Origin: Rhodobacterales bacterium
GTDB taxonomy: Bacteria; Pseudomonadota; Alphaproteobacteria; Rhodobacterales; CAZPXZ01
DNA: 64,000 bases
Direction of reading: 5' to 3'
NCBI GenBank assembly: GCA_965217995.1
Contig: CBDCKB010000004.1
Coordinates: 1,283,788 to 1,347,787, forward strand
Shown here one piece after another: positions 5,732 to 49,906 of this stretch. Each line of letters begins with the position of its first letter. Position 1 is the first letter of the stretch. Below the pieces are notes generated by a model, which was not told the DNA's origin, ran no database searches, and saw nothing but the letters and a program-made list of their open reading frames with translations. The position numbers were made by a program, and so were the translations under genes.

Positions 5732-7072
5732 TCAGTTCTCTTGGATTGCGGTGTCCAGGACGGTCAGGATATCCTGGGCGCGGTGCCAGGTCGGGGACCC
5801 TTCGGTCGAGGCCGATTGGGCACGCTGCGCGAAGCGGACCGCGGAGGCGGCATCGCCAAGGATCAATCGCTCCTCGGCGGTCATCAGTGCCGCATGGGCC
5901 TCGTCGCCGACGCGGGCGAACGCGACGGCCAGCAGGCGCCGGGACGCCGGATCAAGATCATCCTTGGCTACTGCGCGCTTGAGGACCGCGCGCGCTTCGT
6001 CGTCGGCTTCCCGGGTCTGCAGGGAGAGCAGTGCCTGGCCCAGGCTGGTGAGGATCAGTGGCTCGTCGGGTGCCAGTTCAACGGCCCGACGGTAGGAGAG
6101 GACGGCCGGGCCAGTTGCCCCGCTCTCGAACAGGATCTGGCCCCGCAGCTCGTGATAGTAGGGATCGTCGGGGCGTTTCTGCAGCAATCGGTCGACCGTG
6201 GCGATGGCACCCTCCCGGTTGCCGGCCCGATGCCGGGCGATGGCGAGGCCGAGGAGGGCTTCTTCGGTATCGCTCCCTGCATAGCGGGCTTCCGCCTCGG
6301 CCGGAATTCTGGCAAGGAACGCACCCAGCTTGGTGCGTATCCGGGCGTAGCGGTAGTCTAGATCTGCATCCGTTCCGGCCCCGCGCTGCGGTGATTTGTC
6401 AACGAGATTCTGCAGGTTGCGAATCCGCTCGCTGGCGATGGGATGGCTGAGCGCGTAGGGATCGAGATCGCCGTAGGTTTCCTGCGTGCGACGTAGCATG
6501 TGCATCAATGTGAGTAGTGCGACCGGGTCGACACCGCTCTTTTCCAGAAAACCGACCCCCTCGGTGTCGGCCGAGGTCTCTTCGTTGCGGGTGTAGCGCA
6601 GGAATGTCTGCTGGGCGATCTGCTGCGAGGCCGTAGCTCCGGCGATCACCAATTCCGGTTGTCCGCCGACGATTCCGAAGAGCAGTGCGAGAGCCGTGAA
6701 GGCACTCGCCTGTGACAGGGCAGTGGTATATTGCTCGATACGCCGGATCACATGGCCGCTGGAGATATGCGCGGTTTCATGGGCAATGACCGAGAGCAGT
6801 ACGGGATAGGTTTCGCTGGCTTCGACCAGGCCGCTGTTGAGAAAAATACGGTTGTCGCCGGTCGCGACGGCGTTGATGCCGCGCGCATTGACGACCGCGA
6901 TGTGTACGGTTTCCGGGTCGAGGCCGGCGGCATGCAGCACCGGTTCCGACATGTCCCGGATTACGGCTTCGATTTCTGCATCGCGGATCAGCCACCCGCT
7001 GGCCGCCACCGGTGCTGCATGCCACATGCAGGCGATGGTTGCAGCCAAAATTCCGACGACGAGGCGGTTCAT
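5732..7072 (-). CDS. M48-family zinc metalloprotease with C-terminal TPR repeats
   Basis: The real start is the Met of MNRLVVGILAATIACMWHAAPVAASG (signal peptide), at 7072. The HExxH motif is present (IAHETAHISSGH), and the C-terminal half is TPR-like. The 781-aa track ORF extends upstream only because it runs antisense-frame through the rne repeats. Confidence 0.85.
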   Translation of the reverse strand: MNRLVVGILAATIACMWHAAPVAASGWLIRDAEIEAVIRDMSEPVLHAAGLDPETVHIAVVNARGINAVATGDNRIFLNSGLVEASETYPVLLSVIAHETAHISSGHVIRRIEQYTTALSQASAFTALALLFGIVGGQPELVIAGATASQQIAQQTFLRYTRNEETSADTEGVGFLEKSGVDPVALLTLMHMLRRTQETYGDLDPYALSHPIASERIRNLQNLVDKSPQRGAGTDADLDYRYARIRTKLGAFLARIPAEAEARYAGSDTEEALLGLAIARHRAGNREGAIATVDRLLQKRPDDPYYHELRGQILFESGATGPAVLSYRRAVELAPDEPLILTSLGQALLSLQTREADDEARAVLKRAVAKDDLDPASRRLLAVAFARVGDEAHAALMTAEERLILGDAASAVRFAQRAQSASTEGSPTWHRAQDILTVLDTAIQEN

Positions 7073-7133
7073 GCGCCGGGGTTCGGTGCGAATGCCCATA
7101 TCTGCGGCCCCGTCCTGGTGCATCCTCTTGCCG

Positions 7134-10016
7134 CTAGGGCTGGGGATCTCCCGGCAGGGGCTTTGCCCCGACGGGAAAAGCGGGATTCCCGTCATCCAGG
7201 GAGTCGCTTTCCCACGGGCGCGCGGGCGAAAAACCGTCCTTTTTCGCGGTGCGCAGGGGCCGCCGTCTTCCGCGCCCGCCCGCCCGGGGGGCGCTTTCCG
7301 ACGGGGGTGCGCTGCCCCGCGGGTGCGCTGGCGGAAAATCATCCTCTTCCTTGTTGCGCAGGGGGCGCCGCCTTCCGCGTCCACCTTCCCGGGGGGCGCT
7401 TTCCGACGGGGGTGCGCTGTCCCGCGGGTGCGCTGGCGGGAAATCATCCTCTTCCTCGTTGCGCAGGGGCCGCCGTCTTCCGCGTCCACCCTCTCGGGGG
7501 GCGCTTTCCGACAGGGGTGCGCTGTCCCGCGGGTGCGCTGGCGGGAAATCATCCTCTTCCTCGTTGCGCAGGGGCCGTCGTCTTCCGCGTCCACCTTCCC
7601 GGGGGGCGCTTTCCGACAGGGATGCGCTGTCCCGCGGGTGCGCTGGCGGGAAATCATCCTCTTCCTCGTTGCGCAGGGGCCGTCGTCTTCCGCGTCCACC
7701 TTCCCGGGGGGCGCTTTCCGACAGGGGTGCGCTGTCCCGCGGGTGCGCGGGCGGGAAATCATCCTCTTCCTCGTTGCGCAGGGGCCGTCGTCTTCCGCGT
7801 CCACCTTCCCGGGGGGTGCTTTCCGACAGGGATGCGCTGTCCCGCGGGTGCGCTGGCGGGAAATCATCCTCTTCCTCGTTGCGCAGGGGCCGCCGTCTTC
7901 CGCGTCCACCCTCTCGGGGGGCGCTTTCCGACAGGGGTGCGCTGTCCCGCGGGTGCGCTGGCGGGAAATCATCCTCTTCCTCGTTGCGCAGGGGCCGTCG
8001 TCTTCCGCGTCCACCTTCCCGGGGGGCGCTTTCCGACAGGGATGCGCTGTCCCGCGGGTGCGCTGGCGGGAAATCATCCTCTTCCTCGTTGCGCAGGGGC
8101 CGCCGTCTTCCGCGTTCGCCCTCTAGAGGAGCGCTTTCCAACGGGGGAGCTGGCGAAACATCGTCCTCTCCCTCGCTGGGCCGCCGCCGTCCGCGCCCGC
8201 CGCGCCGGCTCCGGCGCCGCCGGCCGGAGCGGTCTGCGTCTCCCGCAGAATCCCGCGCTTCGCCCTCGCGGGTCTCCTCTTCCTCGTCGTCGGGAGACTC
8301 TTCCGTGCGGCTGCGTTCGGGCCGTTCCCTGCTGTCCTGCGGTTCGGTCCGGGTGGGCGGTTCGGCGCGATCCATCTGGCCGCCCCAGGAAAGATCGACT
8401 TTTCCGGCCTGCATGGAGGGATCTGCTGCGATCTCGATCTGCACCCCGTGCCGTTCCTCGATCACGTTGAGCGTCATGCGTTTGGTGTTGCTCAGGAAAT
8501 TGGCGACCCCGACGGAGACACGGAGCTTGGCGCGGCTTCCGGAGTGGGTGGCTGCCTGCTCCTCGGCCTGGCGCAAGGCGGACAGTCCGAAGGAGGCGTC
8601 GGTACGCATCCGTCCGCTTCCCGCACAATGCGGGCAGGGCTCGGTGGACATTTCCAGCATGCCTTTTTTGAGGCGCTGGCGGGACATTTCGAGAAGGCCG
8701 AAACCGGAAATCTGTCCGATCTGGCCCCGGGCCCGATCTGATTTCAGACATTCCTTCAGTCGGCTTTCCACGGCCCGGCGGTTGCGTCCGACATCCATGT
8801 CGATGAAGTCGATGACGATCAGGCCGGAAATATCCCGCAGCTGAAGCTGGCGGGCGACCTCCTCGGCCGCCTCGAGATTGGTATGCAGGGCCGTGTTTTC
8901 GATGTTCCGTTCCTTGGTGGAACGGCCGGAATTGACATCGATGCAGGTCATCGCCTCGACCGGTTCGAGGACGATCCAGCCTCCCGAGGGCAGCCGCACC
9001 TCCGGGTCGAAAAGCGCATCCAGCTGGTGGTCGACCTTGTGGCGGACGAAAATCTGGGTCTTTTCGTTGTATTGCTTGATGTTTTTCGCATGCGACGGCA
9101 TGAGCAGGCGCATGTACTGCTTGGCGTCGCGATAGGCGTCGTCGCCGTCGATCTGGATTGCGTCCATGTCCTTGTCATAGAGATCCCGGATCGCGCGGCG
9201 GATCAGACTGCTTTCCTCATGGATCAGACAGGGGGCATAGGATTCGAGTGTGGTGGTACGGATTTCCTCCCACTGCTTGAGAAGTGCCGCATAGTCACGC
9301 TTGATCTCGGCCTTGGTACGCTCGGAGCCGGCGGTGCGGATGATCACCCCGTGTTCGGGGGCGACGTCGAGCTCCTGGACGATGCTCTTCAGCCGGGTGC
9401 GGTTCTTCGAGGTGTCGATCTTGCGCGAGATCCCGCCCCCGCGGGCGGTGTTGGGGGCCAGCACGCAGTAGCGGCCGGCCAGCGACAGATAGGTGGTCAG
9501 GGCCGCGCCCTTGTTCCCCCGCGGCTCGCGGTAGATCTGCACCAGGAGAACCTGCCGCCGCTTGATGACCTCCTGGATGGCGTAATTCTTGGCCCGCGGC
9601 GGAGGCGGTCGGTTGATTTTCTCTTCTTCTTCTTCCGCATCAGGGTCGGGTTCATTCGCGGATTCGGTTTCGTTCCCTGTCTCGGAAGGCGGGGTGTCGT
9701 GGTCTTCACTTTCCCGTTCCGCATCGGCCGCCTTGCGGTCTTCGCGCAGCAGTACCTGCCGGTCGTGATCCGGAATCTGGTAGTAGTCCGGATGGATGTC
9801 GGGTAGCGCGAGAAACCCGTCCCGCTCGCCGCCATAATCGACAAAAGCGGCCTGCAGGGCCGGTTCTACATGCACTACGCGCGCAAGATAGATGTTTCCG
9901 CTGAGTTGCGCGTTCGCCTTGGCGTCGAATTCGAATGCGGTTAGGCGGCCATTGTTGATAATCGCTACCCGAGTTTCCTCGGGGTGGGCCGCGTCGATGA
10001 GCATTTGTTTTGCCAT
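7134..10016 (-). CDS. rne: Ribonuclease E
   Basis: Start at MAKQMLIDAAHPEETRVAIINNGRLTAFEFD (ATG 10016). It has the S1 and catalytic domains (GNIYLARVVHVEPALQAAFVDYG..., LVIDFIDM, CPHCAGSGR zinc link) and a long Arg- and acid-rich C-terminal region containing the repeats below. 960 aa. Confidence 0.93.
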   Translation of the reverse strand: MAKQMLIDAAHPEETRVAIINNGRLTAFEFDAKANAQLSGNIYLARVVHVEPALQAAFVDYGGERDGFLALPDIHPDYYQIPDHDRQVLLREDRKAADAERESEDHDTPPSETGNETESANEPDPDAEEEEEKINRPPPPRAKNYAIQEVIKRRQVLLVQIYREPRGNKGAALTTYLSLAGRYCVLAPNTARGGGISRKIDTSKNRTRLKSIVQELDVAPEHGVIIRTAGSERTKAEIKRDYAALLKQWEEIRTTTLESYAPCLIHEESSLIRRAIRDLYDKDMDAIQIDGDDAYRDAKQYMRLLMPSHAKNIKQYNEKTQIFVRHKVDHQLDALFDPEVRLPSGGWIVLEPVEAMTCIDVNSGRSTKERNIENTALHTNLEAAEEVARQLQLRDISGLIVIDFIDMDVGRNRRAVESRLKECLKSDRARGQIGQISGFGLLEMSRQRLKKGMLEMSTEPCPHCAGSGRMRTDASFGLSALRQAEEQAATHSGSRAKLRVSVGVANFLSNTKRMTLNVIEERHGVQIEIAADPSMQAGKVDLSWGGQMDRAEPPTRTEPQDSRERPERSRTEESPDDEEEETREGEARDSAGDADRSGRRRRSRRGGRGRRRPSEGEDDVSPAPPLESAPLEGERGRRRPLRNEEEDDFPPAHPRDSASLSESAPREGGRGRRRPLRNEEEDDFPPAHPRDSAPLSESAPREGGRGRRRPLRNEEEDDFPPAHPRDSASLSESTPREGGRGRRRPLRNEEEDDFPPAHPRDSAPLSESAPREGGRGRRRPLRNEEEDDFPPAHPRDSASLSESAPREGGRGRRRPLRNEEEDDFPPAHPRDSAPLSESAPREGGRGRRRPLRNEEEDDFPPAHPRDSAPPSESAPREGGRGRRRPLRNKEEDDFPPAHPRGSAPPSESAPRAGGRGRRRPLRTAKKDGFSPARPWESDSLDDGNPAFPVGAKPLPGDPQP
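7194..8138 (-). repeat. Nine in-frame tandem 105-bp (35-aa) repeats within the rne C-terminal region
   Basis: The landmark aaatcatcct recurs at 7441, 7546, 7651, 7756, 7861, 7966 and 8071, giving a 105-bp period. The peptide unit is ESAPREGGRGRRRPLRNEEEDDFPPAHPRDSA(S/P)LS. Eight copies are well conserved and one C-terminal copy is degenerate. Confidence 0.95.
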
Positions 10017-10384
10017 TGTTCCTGCCGGGAGCGCACAAGGGCGCTCCGCTTTGTCCAGGCATGGGAGCCATGTTCGAAGACTGCGCCGGGGCGCGTCAGA
10101 AGAAATGAGGCCATCATGCGTCCTCGGTGCCGTCGTGCAGCGCACGACGCCTGATTGGAAGGCGCGGGACGATGCCCGCAACCATGTTGCATCCGCCAAA
10201 CCACAGACCCGAATCGGGTGGGGAATTCGCGGGTGCAGGATCATCCCATAAAAAATGGGCGAAATCACGGCGGCGCGGGGACGGAAACTCCAAGAGGCTT
10301 TCCTGAAACCAAAATCCGCGCAACCACTGCGTTATTTGGGGAGGATAAGGCATTTCTGTCCCAAAGCAAGCCGCTTTGTCACGA

Positions 10385-11180: not shown

Positions 11181-12119
11181 ATGATCGATCTGACGCTCGC
11201 AGAGACTCCTTCCAATCCGGCCCCCCCCGGCGGGTACTGCTTTGCCGTCGACACCGCGGACGGGTTGGTCCTGCGCGCCGCAGTCTGGGAGGCGCCTGCC
11301 ACGAAAGGGACGACGATTGTCTATCCCGGCCGCGCGGAGCCGATCGAACTCTATTTTCCGGTCATCCGGTTTCTGCTTTCGCTCGGCTGGTCCGTAGCCG
11401 CTGTGGACTGGCGCGGCCAGGGGCGCAGCACGCGGGTTCTGCCCGACCCGCGCAAAGGCCATGTCAAAAGTTTTCTGGAATACCAGCAGGATACCGCAGC
11501 CTTGCTGGCTGCGCCCGGGATCGCGGCCCTGCCACGGCCACGTGTGCTCGTCTGCCATTCCATGGGAAGTGCCATCGCCATCCGCCAGCTCTCGGCGCAG
11601 CCGGATGCCGCCGATGCCATGGTGCTCTGCGCACCGCTTTTGCAGCTGCGGTTTGGTCGCGTCGGCAATCTTCTTCTCTGCGGCCTCGCCCGCCTGATAT
11701 CCGGAATGGGTGGGGAAAACCGCTATGCCAGCATCCGGGGCGGGACATCTGTTGCGCAGATGGGATTTCCGGGCAACCCCCTGACCGGGTCGCCGGAACG
11801 CTTCGCGGTCCTTCAGGAAATCGAGGAAACGATCCCGGGACTCGCCATCGGCGGTCCAAGCTGGGCCTGGCTCCGGGCCTGGTATCGGGACGGTGCCGAA
11901 TTGCGCCGGCTGCCGCCTCCGACGGTGCCGGTTCTGTTGCTGGTCAGTGCCCGGGACCGGGTGGTCGCGCCGGGGCCGGTGGTGGAATTCGCCCGGCGGA
12001 CCGCGAAATCCCGCCTCCTTGTGCTGGAGGAAGGCGAGCACAGTCTGCTGATCGAACGGGACGGGATCCGCGATCCGGTTCTCATGGAGATAGCCGGGTT
12101 TCTCAAAACATTCGCCTAG
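11181..12119 (+). CDS. Alpha/beta hydrolase (lysophospholipase-like)
   Basis: C-terminal part of ORF 10950..12119. It has the nucleophile elbow CHSMGS, plus DWRGQGRS and a late EGEHSLL. The start is ATG 11181 (alternative 11142). Confidence 0.75.
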   Translation: MIDLTLAETPSNPAPPGGYCFAVDTADGLVLRAAVWEAPATKGTTIVYPGRAEPIELYFPVIRFLLSLGWSVAAVDWRGQGRSTRVLPDPRKGHVKSFLEYQQDTAALLAAPGIAALPRPRVLVCHSMGSAIAIRQLSAQPDAADAMVLCAPLLQLRFGRVGNLLLCGLARLISGMGGENRYASIRGGTSVAQMGFPGNPLTGSPERFAVLQEIEETIPGLAIGGPSWAWLRAWYRDGAELRRLPPPTVPVLLLVSARDRVVAPGPVVEFARRTAKSRLLVLEEGEHSLLIERDGIRDPVLMEIAGFLKTFA

Positions 12120-12841
12120 GTGTGGAAGTTCATCTGGTTGCCCTCGTCCAGCTCCGGTCGGCTGATGGATGTCTGCTTTTCAGGCGGTCGTGAGGTCGGT
12201 GCCGGTTGCAACGATGAAACCGGTCGGATCGTTGCGGGGAGATCGGGCAGGTGGCCGCATAGGCCATTTCTTGGGGGCGGTCTGTATGTAACGCCCGGCC
12301 TTGTCGTGGATGCCCGGGGGGAGGAGCGCGACGGATATGGCAGATGTCGGGGCCGGTGCTGCGTTGCGGCAGACTCTGGAGGGAGCGCCGGATCCGTCGG
12401 CGGTCGTGAGACGCTCAATGGGGAGGTCGAAATTCGGGCAGCCGGCGATCACAACCTCAAGAAAGGCGTTGCGGATCAAGCGGTTTCGCCGGGCATCCTC
12501 CAGCACCGGACATCAAGGCGGGCCCGGCCCGAACCGCTCCGGAGCGGCGGATTTGACACCTCGGGAGAGATTTGTAATTTCCCCACCATGACTGATGCAC
12601 CGAGCCCCGGGGAATCGCGCATGGACGGTCCGTCCGCCCGCAAACCCCACCCTGTCCTCACTCCCGCAGCACAGCGGGCGTGCGGCTTGCTGCATGCATC
12701 GGCAGCACCTCCCGTACCGGAACCATCGCCGGTCGTCCGGGACCGCCTGCTCCCACCAGGGTCGGCGGATTTCGGACCAGCGGCTGGTGCAGGTGTTTCT
12801 GCCCGCAACAGGCCCGCCCAAACGCAGCGACACCCAAAAAG

Positions 12842-13939
12842 ATGGTATTTCCAATGGCCTCAGGACAGCAATCTCAGGCAACCTTTCGGCACAAACCCCG
12901 GCATGATGCCTGTTACAAGCAGCTCTTTGACCATGCGGTGGTGGTCAAAGATCTGATCTCCGGATTCATAGCTCCGCATCTGAGTGATAAGTTTAATTTT
13001 TCCACACTGGAAAAAGTCCCGTCCTCTTACGTAAGCAACAGCCTGAAGCAGCGTCACATCGACCGGGTCTGGCGCGTCCGCCTTCGTGGCAGCGGCCGGT
13101 GGCTGTACATCCTGCTGGAATTCCAGTCCACGGTCGATCTGCTCATGGGGGTGCGCATGCTGACCTATATCGGGCTGCTGTATGAGGATATTTGCCGGAA
13201 CAAGGCGAATCTCGGGCCGCAGGGCGAACTTCCGGAGATATGGCCGATTGTTCTCTTCAACGGCGACACGCCGTGGACTGCACCGCTCACTATCAATGCG
13301 GTGGCACTGACCCGGGGCGATGGGCATCGGGATCAAGTGTTCCCGGAGTATTTTGTGTTCTGCCAACAGGAGTATCCGTTGGACGATTTGCCACCGGACA
13401 ATGTTGTATCGCTCCTGATCAGACTGGAACGAATACCCCGGTCCGGCGCACCGATGGACCAGCTGCTGGATGATATCAGGGCATGGTTACGGAAATTTGA
13501 CAAGGATGATTACACCCGGCAGAGTCTCATCAGGGCGATTAGCAACTGGGTTGGGGAGTATCTGATGCTGAAAGACAAAATTGACTCCAGTCTTGATCCG
13601 TGGGATCAGCTGGAGCGGATGCAGAACCTCGCGATGAATTGGGAAGCCCCGGAATGGGCGCAGGGATGGCTTGAGGAAGGGCTTGCGAAAGGCCGGACGG
13701 AAGGCCGGACGGAAGGGATCGAGGAAGGGATCGAAAAAGGCCGGACGGAAGTGCTGGGGGCAATTCGGAAGAGTCTGTACCTTCAGGCCGGGTCGAGATT
13801 TGATCCGGAAACGGTCGGCCGGCTGACCCAGCATCTGGATCAGGTATCCGATCCGGAGCGGCTGTTGGAGATTTCCGGGAAGATCCACGAAGGCGCAACC
13901 TGTGCCGCGCTTCTCAAATGTCTCAAAAACCGATCATAG
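12842..13939 (+). CDS. Rpn-family recombination-promoting nuclease (YhgA-like PD-(D/E)XK, annotated 'putative transposase' in some databases)
   Basis: ATG 12842 within ORF 12680..13939. The N-terminal half (HDACYKQLFDH..VVKDLISGF...IDRVWRVRL...WLYILLEFQSTVD..MGVRMLTYIGLLYE...LPEIWPIVLFNGDTPW) matches the Rpn/YhgA-like nuclease core pattern. The C-terminal third is a separate Lys/Glu/Arg-rich domain. Confidence 0.85.
   Translation: MVFPMASGQQSQATFRHKPRHDACYKQLFDHAVVVKDLISGFIAPHLSDKFNFSTLEKVPSSYVSNSLKQRHIDRVWRVRLRGSGRWLYILLEFQSTVDLLMGVRMLTYIGLLYEDICRNKANLGPQGELPEIWPIVLFNGDTPWTAPLTINAVALTRGDGHRDQVFPEYFVFCQQEYPLDDLPPDNVVSLLIRLERIPRSGAPMDQLLDDIRAWLRKFDKDDYTRQSLIRAISNWVGEYLMLKDKIDSSLDPWDQLERMQNLAMNWEAPEWAQGWLEEGLAKGRTEGRTEGIEEGIEKGRTEVLGAIRKSLYLQAGSRFDPETVGRLTQHLDQVSDPERLLEISGKIHEGATCAALLKCLKNRS
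13553..13567 (+). promoter_or_regulatory. Internal Shine-Dalgarno-like GGGGAG plus in-frame ATG inside the rpn gene (candidate RpnS-type internal start)
   Basis: GGGGAG at 13553-13558 lies 6 nt upstream of the in-frame ATG at 13565 (codon 242 of 365). The identical element (14018-14032) precedes the free-standing duplicate ORF. Confidence 0.35.
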
Positions 13940-14029
13940 TCGATCGGATGCTCCTTTGCGGCCCATGAGGATGATTTCACCCGGCAGAGTCTCGCCAGGA
14001 CGTTCAGCAACTGGGTTGGGGAGTATCTG

Positions 14030-14440
14030 ATGCTGAAAGACAAAATTGACTCCAGTCTTGATCCGTGGGATCAGCTGGAGCGGATGCAGAACCTCGCGAT
14101 GAATTGGGAAGCCCCGGAATGGGCGCAGGGATGGCTTGAGGAAGGGCTTGCGAAAGGCCGGACGGAAGGCCGGACGGAAGGGATCGAAAAAGGCCGGACG
14201 GAAGGGATCGAAAAAGGCCGGACGGAAGGGATCGAAAAAGGCCGGACGGAAGTGCTGGGGGCAATTCGGAAGAGTCTGTACCTTCAGGCCGGGTCGAGAT
14301 TTGATCCGGAAACGGTCGGCCGGCTGACCCAGCATCTGGATCAGGTATCCGATCCGGAGCGGCTGTTGGAGATTTTCGGGAAGATCCACGAAGGCGCAAC
14401 CTGTGCCGCGCTGCTCAAATGTATCAAAAACCGATCATAG
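14030..14440 (+). CDS. Free-standing duplicate of the Rpn C-terminal domain (136 aa)
   Basis: MLKDKIDSSLDPWDQLERMQNLAMNWEAPEWAQGWLEEGLAKGRTEG... is collinear with Rpn residues 242-365. It keeps the SD-like GGGGAG upstream and contains three GIEKGRTE units where the parent has EGIEEGIEKGRTE. I cannot tell from sequence whether it is expressed or is only a duplication remnant. Confidence 0.55.
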   Translation: MLKDKIDSSLDPWDQLERMQNLAMNWEAPEWAQGWLEEGLAKGRTEGRTEGIEKGRTEGIEKGRTEGIEKGRTEVLGAIRKSLYLQAGSRFDPETVGRLTQHLDQVSDPERLLEIFGKIHEGATCAALLKCIKNRS

Positions 14441-47620: not shown

Positions 47621-49906
47621 TCAGGCTTTTCCTGCGAGTGAACCGTCGGGATCGATCCGCCGCGCACCCCCCATATAGGGGCCGAGGACGGGCGGCAGAT
47701 CGATGCCACCGTCTTCGGTCTGTCCGTTCTCCATCACTGCGATCAGGGCCCGTCCGATCGCGACACCGGATCCGTTCAGGGTATGGACGAATTCTGGCTT
47801 CCCTCCGCCCGCCGGGCGGAAGCGTGCGTCCATCCGTCGGGCCTGGAAATCTCCGCAGGTCGAGCAGGAGGAAATTTCGCGATAGCGGCCCTGACCGGGC
47901 AGCCATGTCTCGATATCGTAGGTCATTCCGGCCGCAAAACCGAGATCCCCGGTGCAGAGTGCCACGGTTCGCCAGGGGAGGCCGAGGGCTTCGAGCACGC
48001 CTTCGGCACAGCCGGTCATGCGCTCGAGCTCCCCCGCCGAATCTTCCGGCCGGGTGATCGAGACGAGTTCCACTTTCTCGAATTGGTGCTGGCGGAGCAT
48101 GCCACGCGTATCCTGCCCGGCGGCCCCGGCCTCGGAACGGAAGCAGGAGGTCCAGGCGACATAGCGTTGCGGGAGCTGGCCGGAATCGAGCACCTGCCCG
48201 GAGACGAGATTGGTGAGGGGCACTTCCGCGGTCGGGATCAGCCAGTGTTCCCGCGTTGTCTGGTAGAGGTCATCGTGGAATTTCGGCAGCTGGCCCGTGC
48301 CCCGGAGGACCTCCGGCAGCACCAGCGCGGGCACCCAGATTTCCTCATAGCCGTTTTCTTCGACATGCCGGTCGAGCATGAAGCGGCCCAGGGCCTGGTG
48401 CAGGCGGGCCAGGGCACCGCGAAGCACAACGAACCGGGAACCGGACAGCCTTGCGGCCGTCGTGAAATCCATCAGCCCGAGGGCTTCGCCCAGCACAAAA
48501 TGCTCGCGCGGTGGATATCCGCGCTCCGGAATCGTGCCGTTGCGCCGCAATTCAAGATTGGCACTTTCGTTGACGCCATCCGGCACTCCGGCGAGCGGCA
48601 GGTTGGGAAGCTGTTCGAGTTCGGCGGCCAGATCGGCACTGCGTTCGCGGGCGGCCTGCTGCAGTTCCGAGAGTCTGTGGCGGGACTGCGCCATCCCGTC
48701 GCGGAGCTGGGTGAAGGCCGCCATCACCCTCGCAGAGGCCTGATGGGCCTGCTCGTAGGCGGCCCAGGTCTTACGGGCCTGCTCGTAGGCGGTCTCAAGC
48801 TGTTTGATGGCGGCCTGGGCCCGGGCCTTACTAGCCTGCTCGTAGGCGGTCTTGAGCTGTTTGATGGCGGCCCAGGACTTACGGGTCTGCTCGGAGGCGA
48901 TCTCGATCTGCTTGATGGCGGCCTGAGCTCGGGCCTTACGATCCTGCTCGGAGACGGTCTTGAGCTGTTTGATGGCGGCCCAGGCCTTACGGGCCTGCTC
49001 GGAGGCGGTCTCAAGCTGTTTGATGGCGGCCCGGGCCTTACGGGCCTGCTCGGAGGCGGTCTCGATCTGCTTGATGGCGGCCCGGGCCTTACGGGCCTGC
49101 TCGGAGGCGGTCTCGAGCTGCTTGATGGCGGCCCGAGCCCGGGCCTTACGGGCCTGCTCGGAGGCGGTCTCGAGCTGCTTGATGGCGGCCCGAGCCCGGG
49201 CCTTACGGGCCTGCTCGGAGGCGGTCTCGATCTGCTTGATGACGGCCCGGTCCCGGTCCTTACTAGCCTGTTCGGAGGCGGTCTCGAGCTGCTTGATGGT
49301 GGCCCAGGCCTTACGGGCCTGCTCGGAGGCGGTCTCAAGTTGTTTGATGACGGCCCAGGCCTTACTGGCCTGCTCGGAGGCGGTTTTGAGCTGTTTGACG
49401 GCGGCCCGGGCTCGGATATTGCGGGCCTGCTCGGAGGCGGTCTCGAGCTGTTTGATGATGGCCCAGGCTTTGCGGGCCTGCTCGGAGGCGGTCTCGAGCT
49501 GTTTGATGGCGGCCCGGGCCTTACTGGCCTGCTCGGAGGTGGTCTCGAGCTGCTTGATGGCGGCCCGGGCCTTACTGACCTGCTCGGAGGCGGTCTCGAG
49601 CTGTTTGATGGCGGCCCGGGCTTTGCTGGTCCGCTCTGAAGCGGCGTTACACGCCGCCTGTAGATTCTCGATCTGTTTGATGATGGCGTTGCGCGTCGCT
49701 TGCAGATCATCGATGGCGGCCCGGGCCCTGCGGGCCTGCTCGGTGGAGGCGTTGCGCCCCGCCTGCAGATTCTCGAGCTGTTCGATGGCGGCCCGTCGGG
49801 CGGTATCGAGCGTGAGAAGTCGGGTGGCCGCCGGCTCCAGCCCGAGACGGGCGAGAGCGGCATCGAAGAGATCGGGGTCGGCGCGGACGGCCCGTATGTC
49901 GATCAT
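47621..49906 (-). CDS. serS: Serine--tRNA ligase with a greatly expanded repetitive coiled-coil arm (761 aa)
   Basis: Start at [18 protein letters not shown] (ATG 49906). The class II core is intact ([46 protein letters not shown]). Residues ~58-400 are tandem repeats, described in the repeat feature and findings. Confidence 0.9.
48710..49735 (-). repeat. In-frame tandem 51/57-bp (17/19-aa) repeats inside serS: ~16 conserved units (48770..49621) plus degenerate flanking units
   Basis: gatggcggcc recurs at 48971 and 49022, and onward, giving a 51-bp period. The peptide unit is A(R/W)[15 protein letters not shown], with some units carrying an extra two residues (AR, IR or DR). Confidence 0.95.

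Follow-up and report, generated by a model that had tools for sequence, protein, structure and literature searches.

An in-frame coding minisatellite in the RNase E tail of a Rhodobacterales bacterium and its candidate role as a charge-block scaffold

According to Al-Husini et al. (2018, bioRxiv 10.1101/272286), the RNase E tails of alphaproteobacteria all contain alternating charge blocks, and the same pattern has been described in Sinorhizobium RNase E (PMC12691583). In Caulobacter, deletion of the Arg-rich blocks abolishes the RNase E foci (10.1101/272286). In the 64,000-nucleotide stretch of Rhodobacterales DNA analysed here (the window), such blocks are written as a literal tandem array of nearly identical units, which raises the question of whether this array is a genuine part of the protein, how it arose and is kept, and what it might contribute to the function of the tail.

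The rne gene and the organization of the repeat array

According to the list of open reading frames, the coding sequence of rne (RNase E) occupies positions 7134 to 10016 on the minus strand and encodes 960 amino acids plus a stop codon. Reading the sequence directly, we placed the start at the ATG at 10016 (MAKQMLID...), which has AGGA 5 bases upstream; gene callers begin at a Met 4 codons downstream, giving a product of 956 amino acids (P0001). The beginning MAKQ/MxKKMLID, found as the first residues of P0004 and of the family consensus, agrees with the start at 10016. The assignment to rne made from the sequence alone, with the array in the C-terminal non-catalytic region, was borne out by the matches of the open reading frame (ORF) to the Pfam family RNase_E_G (PF10150, 8.1e-96, residues 178-448), to RNase_E_G_Thio (PF20833, 4.5e-21), a thioredoxin-like domain at residues 460-541, and to TIGR00757 (4e-151; 503.6 bits against a cut-off of 326). 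Moreover, the Zn-link motif CPxCxGxG is present as CPHCAGSG (P0001 residue 457), and the small domain is followed by a non-catalytic extension of ~412 residues, the trait that separates RNase E from RNase G. The product scored below the cut-offs of the NCBIfam equivalog models for the RNase E of enterobacteria, mycobacteria and cyanobacteria, as is expected for a divergent alphaproteobacterium. The nearest RNase E and seryl-tRNA synthetase (SerRS) share ~60-70% identity, and the relatives among the matches listed in a scan of species-representative genomes were all at 59% identity or below.

Based on the profile matches and an AlphaFold2 model, the folded catalytic half (residues 1-548; 8373 to 10016, minus strand like all segments that follow) comprises an S1 domain with an acidic insertion, the RNase E/G core, the Zn-link and the small domain. 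Downstream of it, the translation and a pLDDT below 50 from P0001 residue 545 delimit an acidic Pro-rich linker (residues 549-591, ...EPQDSRERPERSRTEESPDDEEEETREGEARDSA; 8244 to 8372), with which the predicted disordered tail begins. The linker leads into a proto-unit (GDADRSGRRRRSRRGGRGRRRPSEGEDDVSPAPPL; 8139 to 8243), the nine tandem 105-bp units (7194 to 8138) and a C-terminal tail (DGNPAFPVGAKPLPGDPQP; 7137 to 7193), which is kept in all seven distinct alleles.

Tandem Repeats Finder (TRF) reported an array at 7197 to 8147 with a period of 105, 9.1 copies, 93% matches, 0% indels and a score of 1571, which cannot be produced by chance. In register with the long minus-strand ORF, nine units of 35 amino acids fill exactly 8138 to 7194 without indels, precisely where the sequence-only reading had placed them, and the unit consensus that it proposed, ESAPREGGRGRRRPLRNEEEDDFPPAHPRDSA(S/P)LS, holds as given. 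Each unit consists of an Arg block (GGRGRRRPLR), an acidic block (NEEEDDF) and a Pro-rich spacer (PPAHPRDSAPLS). Counting from unit 0, units 1 and 5 are identical in their DNA, and units 0-7 show 0 to 9 differences from these two over their 105 positions, and unit 8 (7298 to 7194) is degenerate (23 nucleotides and 13 amino acids differ) and merges into the C-terminal tail. With nine in-frame copies of 35 amino acids, the locus agrees with the definition of a tandem-repeat RNase E tail (at least 7 amino acids, at least 3 copies, in frame, in the non-catalytic region), and its 315 amino acids make up about three quarters of the predicted disordered C-terminal scaffold.

The proto-unit directly upstream of the array, at 8243 to 8139 (GGRGRRRPSEGEDDVSPAPPL), represents a tenth, older copy, differing from the repeat unit at 64 of 105 nucleotides. 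It corresponds to the family-conserved Arg-rich segment followed by an acidic patch, and in an alignment of 37 homologues R596 is invariant and R597 nearly so. The proto-unit is likely the progenitor of the array. Its junction with unit 0 (PAPPL, then ESAPLEG) is of the 29-amino-acid type that occurs in a sister lineage, as seen by comparison with P0003 and P0125.

Authenticity, turnover and constraint of the repeat units

The array is a genuine in-frame coding minisatellite in rne. Tandem repeats of about 1 kb are difficult for short-read assemblers, and four other frames contain long ORFs (429 to 781 amino acids) across the array, so that one might suspect a tract mis-collapsed or mis-expanded in the assembly, or a true gene in another frame or on the opposite strand. 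However, a locus from a different ENA sample (L003), which over 13 kb shares 99.1% identity with the window, has an rne coding sequence 100% identical to that of the window, with all nine units in the same order; the recovery of the same gene in an independent metagenome assembly shows that the array is real. Furthermore, the contigs that carry the seven distinct alleles are 15 kb to 1.3 Mb long, and every allele is internally consistent. The alternative ORFs result solely from the repetition of a unit that lacks stop codons, and pN/pS among units is 0.42 to 1.65 in the other frames against 0.29 in the rne frame, which is the lowest of the six; on this frame-specific test, we reject overlapping or antisense genes through the array. 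We thus consider an artefact or another reading of the tract to be highly improbable.

The sequence-only reading had proposed to look for copy-number polymorphism in close relatives, and we found 7 to 10 units. The six other alleles contain 7, 8, 8 and 10 units of the 35-amino-acid type and 10 and 10 units of the 29-amino-acid type, the latter being the two alleles of a sister lineage that is ~5% diverged, and all six keep the frame. Strains with 98-99.3% identity differ in their number of units (7, 8, 8, 9 and 10), which points to ongoing expansion and deletion. The units at the edges of the array are common to the strains, and the count differs in its centre. In both lineages, the number of Arg blocks is 8 to 11. 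All alleles but two derive from one metagenome assembly, and seven distinct alleles are too few to test selection on copy number. The clade occurred in two ENA assemblies (ERZ25071859 and ERZ26693861) and one NCBI genome only; in the JGI metagenomes, neither the exact or IUPAC DNA pattern of the unit nor a scan guided by the tail protein gave a match. A protein search with a 124-residue piece of the tail returned no match at E<=1e-3, the source protein included, probably owing to composition filtering. A further 117 RNase E homologues and 80 rne loci contained no comparable array, which is thus clearly not required by the RNase E family.

The variants observed among the units indicate that the encoded peptide is under purifying selection. 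Across 32 interior units of 35 amino acids, 14 variants are synonymous and 11 nonsynonymous (the pN/pS of 0.29 given above), and in the core GGRGRRRPLRNEEEDDF the ratio is 6 synonymous to 2 nonsynonymous; the 29-amino-acid arrays gave a similar pN/pS of 0.28. Between the consensus units of the two types, 6 synonymous differences and 1 nonsynonymous difference were counted over 26 shared codons, corresponding to a dN/dS of ~0.05. A constraint on the peptide had earlier been suggested from a count of three synonymous changes to one, and these values of pN/pS and dN/dS carry that suggestion far beyond its original basis.

The same data bear on the possibility that the array is a largely neutral by-product of very active minisatellite expansion, tolerated in a disordered tail, with a copy number that drifts without functional effect. 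The same window contains a second array of ~860 bp in serS (seryl-tRNA synthetase), found in two strains (proteins of 761 and 692 amino acids) and missing in two others (433 amino acids), and a perfect 24-bp VNTR at 14166 to 14252. These other unstable coding repeats imply that mutational propensity explains part of the existence of the rne array; the differences in unit count between strains 98 to 99% identical, and the finding of nothing comparable in the 117 homologues and 80 rne loci, point in the same direction. A neutral tract, however, is hard to reconcile with the pN/pS among units and the 6:2 ratio of the core, with the even lower dN/dS between the two consensus units, with the retention of the frame in all alleles, with the presence of 8 to 11 Arg blocks in two lineages of unlike unit length and with the near-exact charge balance of the tail (78 K+R against 79 D+E). 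We consider neutrality as the main explanation quite unlikely.

Synonymous variants particular to one strain have come to occupy several of its units, for example, C at 0-based position 74 in six of seven units of L001 and T at 0-based position 80 in five units of L085. In the window array, the four differences quoted in the sequence-only reading, three of them synonymous and the fourth Pro/Ser, do distinguish unit 2 from units 1 and 5. However, unit 4 is of the ASLS type without the three synonymous variants, and unit 6 has the variants without the Ser; all four combinations thus occur in the array, and there is no linkage between these variants and the Ser/Pro site. Together, these combinations and the strain-specific variants indicate concerted evolution of the units.

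Over the first six units, the alternation of ASLS and APLS that had been pointed out is present. The 210-bp higher-order repeat derived from it is not supported, since TRF finds no such period, the mean distance between units at lag 2 (4.0) is barely below that at lag 1 (4.9), and the Ser/Pro site is unlinked to the synonymous variants, as described above. By enumeration, three Ser over eight positions alternate in 4 of 56 arrangements (~7%). The alternation is absent from the other alleles (in P0121 the order is P S S P P P P, and in P0122 all positions are P), and it is therefore private to the strain of the window.

As for the origin of the array, we propose that the family-conserved Arg-rich RNA-binding segment and the acidic patch that follows it were repeatedly duplicated in tandem. 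The 35-amino-acid register would also have included the nine residues with which the C-terminal tail begins (RPWESDSLD, becoming HPRDSAPLS), and a 29-amino-acid register of the same core would have been amplified in the sister lineage. Unequal recombination or replication slippage between units would then continue to shift the copy number (7 to 10) and homogenize the units within a strain, with selection preserving the encoded peptide through this turnover.

Charge pattern of the tail and its putative role

In the AlphaFold2 model, secondary structure stops at residue 543 of P0001, and residues 545 to 956 show no secondary structure and a pLDDT below 50, which is soft support for disorder, the model being built from 37 sequences and the catalytic domain being only moderately modelled. 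The mean hydropathy of the tail is 0.30, with the charge-hydropathy boundary at 0.42, and hydrophobic residues account for 7.8% of the tail compared with 27.8% of the catalytic half. On these grounds, the C-terminal domain is predicted to be intrinsically disordered. Reading through the tail, we noticed no membrane-targeting amphipathic helix; the hydrophobic residues of a unit are confined to a single Phe and one or two Leu, and the tail has no predicted helix.

The tail has a fraction of charged residues of 0.42 and a net charge of ~0. Its kappa is 0.34, compared with 0.15 +/- 0.02 for shuffled sequences and a family mean of 0.38, and lies in the lower part of the family range (106 of 121 tails are higher); these values were computed with an approximate delta-max, so that their comparison is valid and their absolute size approximate. 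The disorder and charge-pattern analysis suggested by the sequence-only reading hence describes a tail without predicted structure that resembles other alphaproteobacterial RNase E tails in its charged fraction and in the segregation of its charges. The number of alternating charge blocks is 21 against a family median of 8, and their density (5.6 versus 3.15 per 100 amino acids) is about twice that of alphaproteobacterial tails. [quoted passage not shown] These values fall within the range that characterizes alternating charge blocks (+2 to +8 and -2 to -8 per 10 amino acids), but the blocks, ~8 to 10 residues long when positive and ~5 to 7 when negative, are shorter than the 10-30 residues described for Caulobacter.

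We consider it rather probable that the repeat-duplicated Arg and acidic module of this coding minisatellite forms an RNA-binding, self-associating scaffold, the valency of which is set by the number of units. By analogy with the known systems, each protomer would present about ten cationic RNA-binding blocks (about forty in a tetramer) with acidic blocks between them, and as a near-neutral polyampholyte the tail could combine RNA binding with electrostatic self-association, thereby scaffolding the degradosome and condensates resembling BR-bodies. A condensate or degradosome-scaffold role, including the tuning by copy number that had been put forward from the sequence, is plausible by comparison with Caulobacter (10.1101/272286).

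The units could instead be repeated docking motifs (SLiMs) to which a component of the degradosome, for instance PNPase, a DEAD-box helicase, aconitase or RNase D, would bind; the array would then act mainly by multi-dentate recruitment of a client rather than by generic self-association of charge blocks. The end of unit 8 (ARPWESDSLD) and the C-terminal tail are conserved across the seven distinct alleles. In favour of docking, none of these alleles has the GWW motif, which is found in the last 25 residues of 102 of 124 homologues. GWW is the PNPase-binding motif of Caulobacter RNase E and was reported to be absolutely conserved in alphaproteobacteria (PMC3045602); its absence here implies that the composition of the degradosome may differ, and repeated docking sites could offset the loss. 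Furthermore, the PNPase site of cyanobacterial RNase E is a short Arg-rich peptide, RRRRRRSSA (PMC3964918), E. coli RNase E has been described as binding PNPase through several motifs (PMC12489471), and both the 29- and the 35-amino-acid units conserve Phe and Pro (DDFPPA), beyond charge. However, ten identical sites per protomer would exceed any known stoichiometry, the Arg block aligns to Arg-rich RNA-binding segments found throughout the family, and the genes of the candidate partners PNPase and helicase lie outside the window. Docking as the main role therefore seems unlikely to us, somewhat less so than neutrality; it is compatible with the charge-block scaffold, and the two are not mutually exclusive.

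Relating the charge-block scaffold to the alleles, it is possible to hypothesize that valency is a selected, rapidly adjustable trait, as the sister lineages would have independently amplified 29- and 35-residue registers of one Arg and acid module to a similar valency (8 to 11) under strong purifying selection, with copy-number alleles coexisting in one community. We offer this hypothesis tentatively and regard it as doubtful. If it were true, the valency of the RNase E scaffold would tune the properties of RNA-decay condensates or the stoichiometry of the degradosome in nature, and an unusually active in-frame repeat expansion in this lineage would remodel essential housekeeping proteins, including RNase E and SerRS.

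Related systems and gene neighbourhood

The closest known counterparts are the BR-body RNases E of Caulobacter crescentus and Sinorhizobium meliloti, which share with the protein of the window the enzyme, the S1-domain insertion typical of the class, the position of the tail after the small domain, the disorder without an amphipathic membrane anchor and the alternation of Arg-rich and acidic blocks, the charged fraction and kappa found here being inside the family range. The likeness is one of sequence and predicted structure; the BR-body type is also characterized by dynamic, RNA-dependent foci in vivo and by salt-sensitive droplets formed by the tail in vitro. The differences are a literal array of units 93 to 100% identical instead of a degenerate sequence, the shorter and about twofold denser blocks, a net charge of ~0 instead of a negative one and the missing GWW motif.

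In-frame tandem repeats in a disordered tail are also known from gammaproteobacterial RNase E (Ait-Bara, Carpousis and Quentin 2015, PMC4435900), where tandem repeats were recognized as a conserved feature of non-catalytic regions and repeat expansion was proposed as the evolutionary route of the tails, with slippage expansion balanced by deletion and the repeats serving as progenitors of microdomains. The published repeats have 7-28 amino acids and 3-11 copies, mostly as AEPV-rich spacers or short REE-type motifs, with 10 to 11 copies in Shewanella woodyi and Pseudoalteromonas haloplanktis (PMC4435900, Table S1). The array described here differs in its period of 35 amino acids (29 in the sister lineage), in its span of 315 amino acids, in having a full module of Arg block and acidic block in each unit and in the strain-level copy-number polymorphism and purifying selection documented for the unit. 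Since tail repeats and alphaproteobacterial charge blocks have both been published, we see the array as a striking variant and not as a new kind of feature. It offers an unusually clear snapshot of a disordered scaffold evolving through the expansion and concerted evolution of its repeats, with purifying selection acting on them, the same evolutionary idea having come earlier from the far more degenerate gammaproteobacterial repeats.

The alleles constitute a natural modular series of 7, 8, 9 and 10 near-identical modules, plus a 29-amino-acid version, on a nearly constant catalytic domain. Work on bacterial condensates alters the charge blocks of RNase E artificially, and these are natural variants, with which the influence of sticker number and spacer length on RNA binding, phase behaviour and degradosome composition could be tested directly. 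As the organism is uncultured, the practical use of the series is limited.

Outside RNase E, the alpha C protein of group B Streptococcus is encoded by a copy-number-variable coding minisatellite with long, near-identical in-frame units that change by recombination or slippage. Long near-identical units and a strain-variable copy number are common to both proteins, but the alpha C protein is a secreted antigen under immune selection, and RNase E is a cytoplasmic housekeeping enzyme. LAF-1 is a eukaryotic RNA granule protein with an RGG-rich, phase-separating disordered region. The GGRGRRR stretch of our units resembles the RG/RGG boxes of LAF-1 and Ddx4, which are unrelated proteins of another lineage and thus provide no more than an analogy; the units are poor in aromatic residues, with a single Phe each. 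In Ddx4 (cited in 10.1101/272286) and in LAF-1, alternating charge blocks drive electrostatic self-association.

As for the surroundings of rne, Rfam detected three tRNAs only in the 64-kb window, and a known rne leader element was not found there. A 781-amino-acid ORF at 5732 to 8077 arises because an alternative frame of the array spuriously lengthens the downstream neighbour of rne. This neighbour, outside the array at 5732 to 7123 on the minus strand, encodes an M48 peptidase of 463 amino acids with TPR repeats, and as its ATG is located 11 nucleotides past the rne stop, the two genes are probably co-transcribed.

The RNase E array and its distribution

The minus-strand ORF 10268..7134 is the only long ORF that crosses the array into a recognizable gene, and the encoded protein is recognized by the Pfam models for RNase_E_G (8e-96) and the RNase E/G thioredoxin-like domain (4.5e-21) and by TIGR00757 (504 bits versus a cut-off of 326). 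Tandem Repeats Finder (TRF) detected a single tandem array (7197..8147; period of 105 bp; 9.1 copies; 93% matches; 0 indels; score of 1571), and translation in the rne frame resolved nine 35-aa units at exactly 8138..7194 on the minus strand, so that the position, period, and unit number assigned to the RNase E C-terminal region by the sequence-only reading were confirmed. Directly upstream of unit 0, in the same strand and frame, lies a more diverged proto-unit, GGRGRRRPSEGEDDVSPAPPL (8243..8139). Units 1 and 5 have the same DNA sequence; measured against it, units 0 to 7 show 0 to 9 mismatches in 105 positions, and unit 8, with 23 differing positions, grades into the C-terminal tail. The ATG at 10016 (MAKQMLID) is the likely rne start, with an AGGA ahead of it and an N terminus that matches those of the homologues. 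Between this start and the MarC-family gene, about 370 nt are untranslated (10017..10384), consistent with a long regulatory rne leader; Rfam at gathering thresholds gave no match in this stretch.

An assembly artefact is ruled out by L003, an independent assembly from a different ENA sample, which is 99.1% identical to the window across 13 kb (93 mismatches) and carries a 100% identical rne CDS, the order of the unit variants included. Six more alleles, each on its own contig (15 kb to 1.3 Mb), are in frame throughout and have the common gene order MarC, rne, M48/TPR peptidase, DsbA-like, aroQ, accB, and accC. Beside this conserved neighbourhood there is a small variable region (window, ~12100..14400; L001, 1527..3667; L002, 1618..3836; L003, 1617..3218), where the hypothetical genes upstream of a hydrolase and MarC vary by strain: the L001 contig carries a Transposase_31-family gene and the other strains carry unannotated ORFs of differing lengths.

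The array is confined to a small clade. The copy-number polymorphism that the sequence-only reading had envisaged among related rne tails was found, with 7 (P0002), 8 (P0122 and P0124), 9 (window), or 10 (P0121) 35-aa units in strains that are 98.0 to 99.3% identical over the 1.76 kb upstream of the array. The sister-lineage alleles P0003 and P0125 (94.3 to 95.1% identical) have 10 units each of a 29-aa version, ESAPRAGGRGRRRPLRNEEEDDFPPAPPL, and the next closest homologues, at about 60% identity, have no array. The array is an extreme outlier in the RNase E family: the best self-repeat score among 117 other alphaproteobacterial RNase E proteins was 20, versus 175 to 272 in the clade, and the best TRF score in 80 other-species rne loci was 313 (1.8 copies), versus 1571 in the window. 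Minor length variation also occurs elsewhere in the protein. Upstream of the array (rne codons ~555 to 585), the sister lineage (L002 and L087) has a 9-aa micro-repeat, EPQDSRARP, in two copies in P0003 and three in P0125, with a single EPQDSRERP in the window, and the acidic S1-domain insertion shows small length polymorphisms (e.g., AEEEEEK versus AEDEEEEK).

Turnover of the array and constraint on the unit

The two lineages have in common the proto-unit, the first unit (ESAPLEG...), the PAPPL|ESAP junction between them, and the terminal unit, which continues into the tail ...FPPA(R/S)PWE(S/N)DSL(E/D)DG.... HPRDSAPLS, the additional stretch in the 35-aa unit, can be aligned at the DNA level (about 70% identity) with RPWESDSLD, the nine residues that open the tail. 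The 105-bp period would have been generated by tandem duplication of a segment comprising the last unit and the start of the tail, and the sister lineage would have amplified an 87-bp register instead. Edge units are orthologous across strains, the number differs in the array centre, and strain-specific synonymous variants are present in several units of one strain, a pattern that, judged from sequence comparison, appears typical of unequal crossing-over and gene conversion.

The alternation of units ending in Ser (ASLS) or Pro (APLS), from which a 210-bp higher-order repeat had been proposed, is present in units 0 to 5. However, the supposed linkage of three synonymous variants to the Ser/Pro site broke down, as units 0, 2, and 6 carry them, unit 4 (ASLS) lacks them, and all four combinations occur. 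Nor was the higher-order repeat itself recovered: TRF reported no 210-bp period, and the mean between-unit distance at lag 2 (4.0) is barely below that at lag 1 (4.9). No Ser/Pro alternation was seen in the arrays of the other strains. The Ser/Pro pattern is a private arrangement of a recombining array and is probably fortuitous.

The peptide constraint suggested by the sequence-only reading held when the units were compared with one another. In a set of 32 interior 35-aa units drawn from five strains (28 synonymous and 77 nonsynonymous sites), 14 distinct synonymous and 11 nonsynonymous variants gave a pN/pS of 0.29; the synonymous:nonsynonymous counts were 6:2 in the core GGRGRRRPLRNEEEDDF and 8:9 in the rest of the unit (N-terminal ESAPRE and Pro-rich spacer). 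The 29-aa arrays gave a pN/pS of 0.28. Furthermore, of the six frames the rne frame had the lowest pN/pS (0.42 to 1.65 in the others), and the 35-aa and 29-aa consensuses differ over 26 shared codons by six synonymous changes and one nonsynonymous change (dN/dS of ~0.05).

In other frames, too, the array is crossed by long ORFs (429 to 781 aa; 5732..8077 on the minus strand; 6731..8470, 6837..8126, and 7249..8844 on the plus strand), which are spurious by-products of repeating a stop-free unit. The 781-aa ORF joins an alternative array frame to the downstream M48/TPR peptidase gene, the real start of which is the ATG at 7123, 11 nt past the rne stop; the L003 gene call stretches this peptidase to 487 aa, overlapping rne. 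Annotation pipelines may mis-call the array region.

In the catalytic half (8373..10016), dN/dS between the 35-aa and 29-aa lineages (L002 and L087) is unusually high, at 0.45 to 0.48 (about 45 nonsynonymous and 30 synonymous differences; dS of 0.085), versus 0.09 to 0.32 inside each lineage; relaxed selection, positive selection, or recombination are possible causes.

Charge pattern of the tail and putative function

The array consists of 20% Arg, 16% Pro, 22% Asp plus Glu, 9% Gly, and 3% Phe. The disorder and charge patterning attributed to this region from the sequence were borne out by prediction. From residue 545 to the end, the AlphaFold2 model has a pLDDT of <50 and no secondary structure, a soft support because the alignment is shallow, and the mean hydropathy of the tail (0.30) is well below the charge-hydropathy boundary (0.42), on the side of disorder. 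The consensus unit contains seven Arg and eight acidic residues, and within one unit the net charge per 10 residues ranges between +5 and -5. For the whole tail, the charged fraction is 0.42 (family mean, 0.416), the net charge per residue is -0.003 (family mean, -0.07), and kappa is 0.34, versus 0.15 +/- 0.02 in 200 shuffles and 0.38 +/- 0.03 in 121 homologous tails. It contains 21 alternating blocks (family median, 8), i.e., 5.6 versus 3.15 per 100 residues. By composition and charge segregation, the tail is thus a typical alphaproteobacterial RNase E polyampholyte; it is unusual in its periodicity, block density, and near-exact neutrality.

It is accepted that charge blocks drive BR-body formation. 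In Caulobacter, the disordered RNase E tail is necessary and sufficient for RNA-dependent BR-bodies, and deletion of the Arg-rich blocks abolishes foci (10.1101/272286); alternating charge blocks have been reported in every alphaproteobacterial RNase E tail (10.1101/272286; PMC12691583). In the alignment, the Arg run of the proto-unit falls on the arginine-rich segment that is invariant across the family (R596, R597), and the array therefore multiplies a conserved RNA-binding segment along with the adjacent acidic stretch. By analogy, we infer that the array could act as a multivalent RNA-binding, self-associating scaffold, the valency of which would change with unit number.

Alternatively, the units may be repeated partner-docking motifs. 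A C-terminal GWW motif binds PNPase in Caulobacter and has been called absolutely conserved in alphaproteobacteria (PMC3045602). It occurs in 102 of 124 homologues and is absent from the RNase E C terminus of the clade (window, 7137..7220; P0002, P0003, and P0121 to P0125), as well as from the nearest relatives outside it (P0004 to P0006) and a group of shorter homologues; Arg-rich (PMC3964918) or multi-motif (PMC12489471) PNPase sites are known in other RNase E proteins. In the stead of GWW, the clade conserves ...PWE(S/N)DSLEDG(H/N)PA(F/L)PV...PGDPQP, which may represent a replacement docking motif.

Tandem repeats have been described as a conserved feature of the gammaproteobacterial RNase E non-catalytic region, with periods of 7 to 28 aa and no more than 11 copies, and they have been proposed to evolve by expansion and deletion (PMC4435900). 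Different from these, the unit in the window is 35 aa long, is near-perfect, and pairs one full positive block with one full negative block. A full-text literature search found no description of a comparable array in alphaproteobacterial RNase E. What is new is the combination of a long near-perfect module with a full block pair, the copy-number polymorphism documented among co-occurring strains, and the two unit lengths in sister lineages, with purifying selection on the unit measured.

Other repeats in the window

A second large in-frame array (48758..49621, minus strand; 51-bp period, 17 aa; ~16 copies; 82 to 84% matches) lies in the seryl-tRNA synthetase (SerRS) CDS (47621..49906, minus strand). 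It is inserted where the coiled-coil tRNA-binding arm at the N terminus has its tip, and the protein reaches 761 aa versus the usual ~430. In a related strain (L001 contig), SerRS is 692 aa long and its array is more diverged; the L084 and L085 strains have a normal 433-aa SerRS (91 to 92% identity), and the expansion is accordingly recent and strain-specific. An arm lengthened several-fold would in itself be a remarkable feature of a SerRS. Two arrays of >800 bp within 64 kb, both in housekeeping genes, suggest that the lineage as a whole is prone to in-frame repeat expansion, which tempers adaptive readings of the rne array. The rne array may be a tolerated by-product of repeat instability, but the selection signals on the unit argue against pure neutrality.

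Finally, a perfect 24-bp tandem repeat (3.6 copies; 14166..14252) lies inside a short hypothetical ORF; it is likely read in the frame of ORF 14030..14440 (plus strand), where it would encode an 8-aa repeat, GRTEGIEK. When L003 is aligned to the window by BLAST, the alignment is interrupted here, which suggests that the 24-bp copy number differs between the two assemblies.
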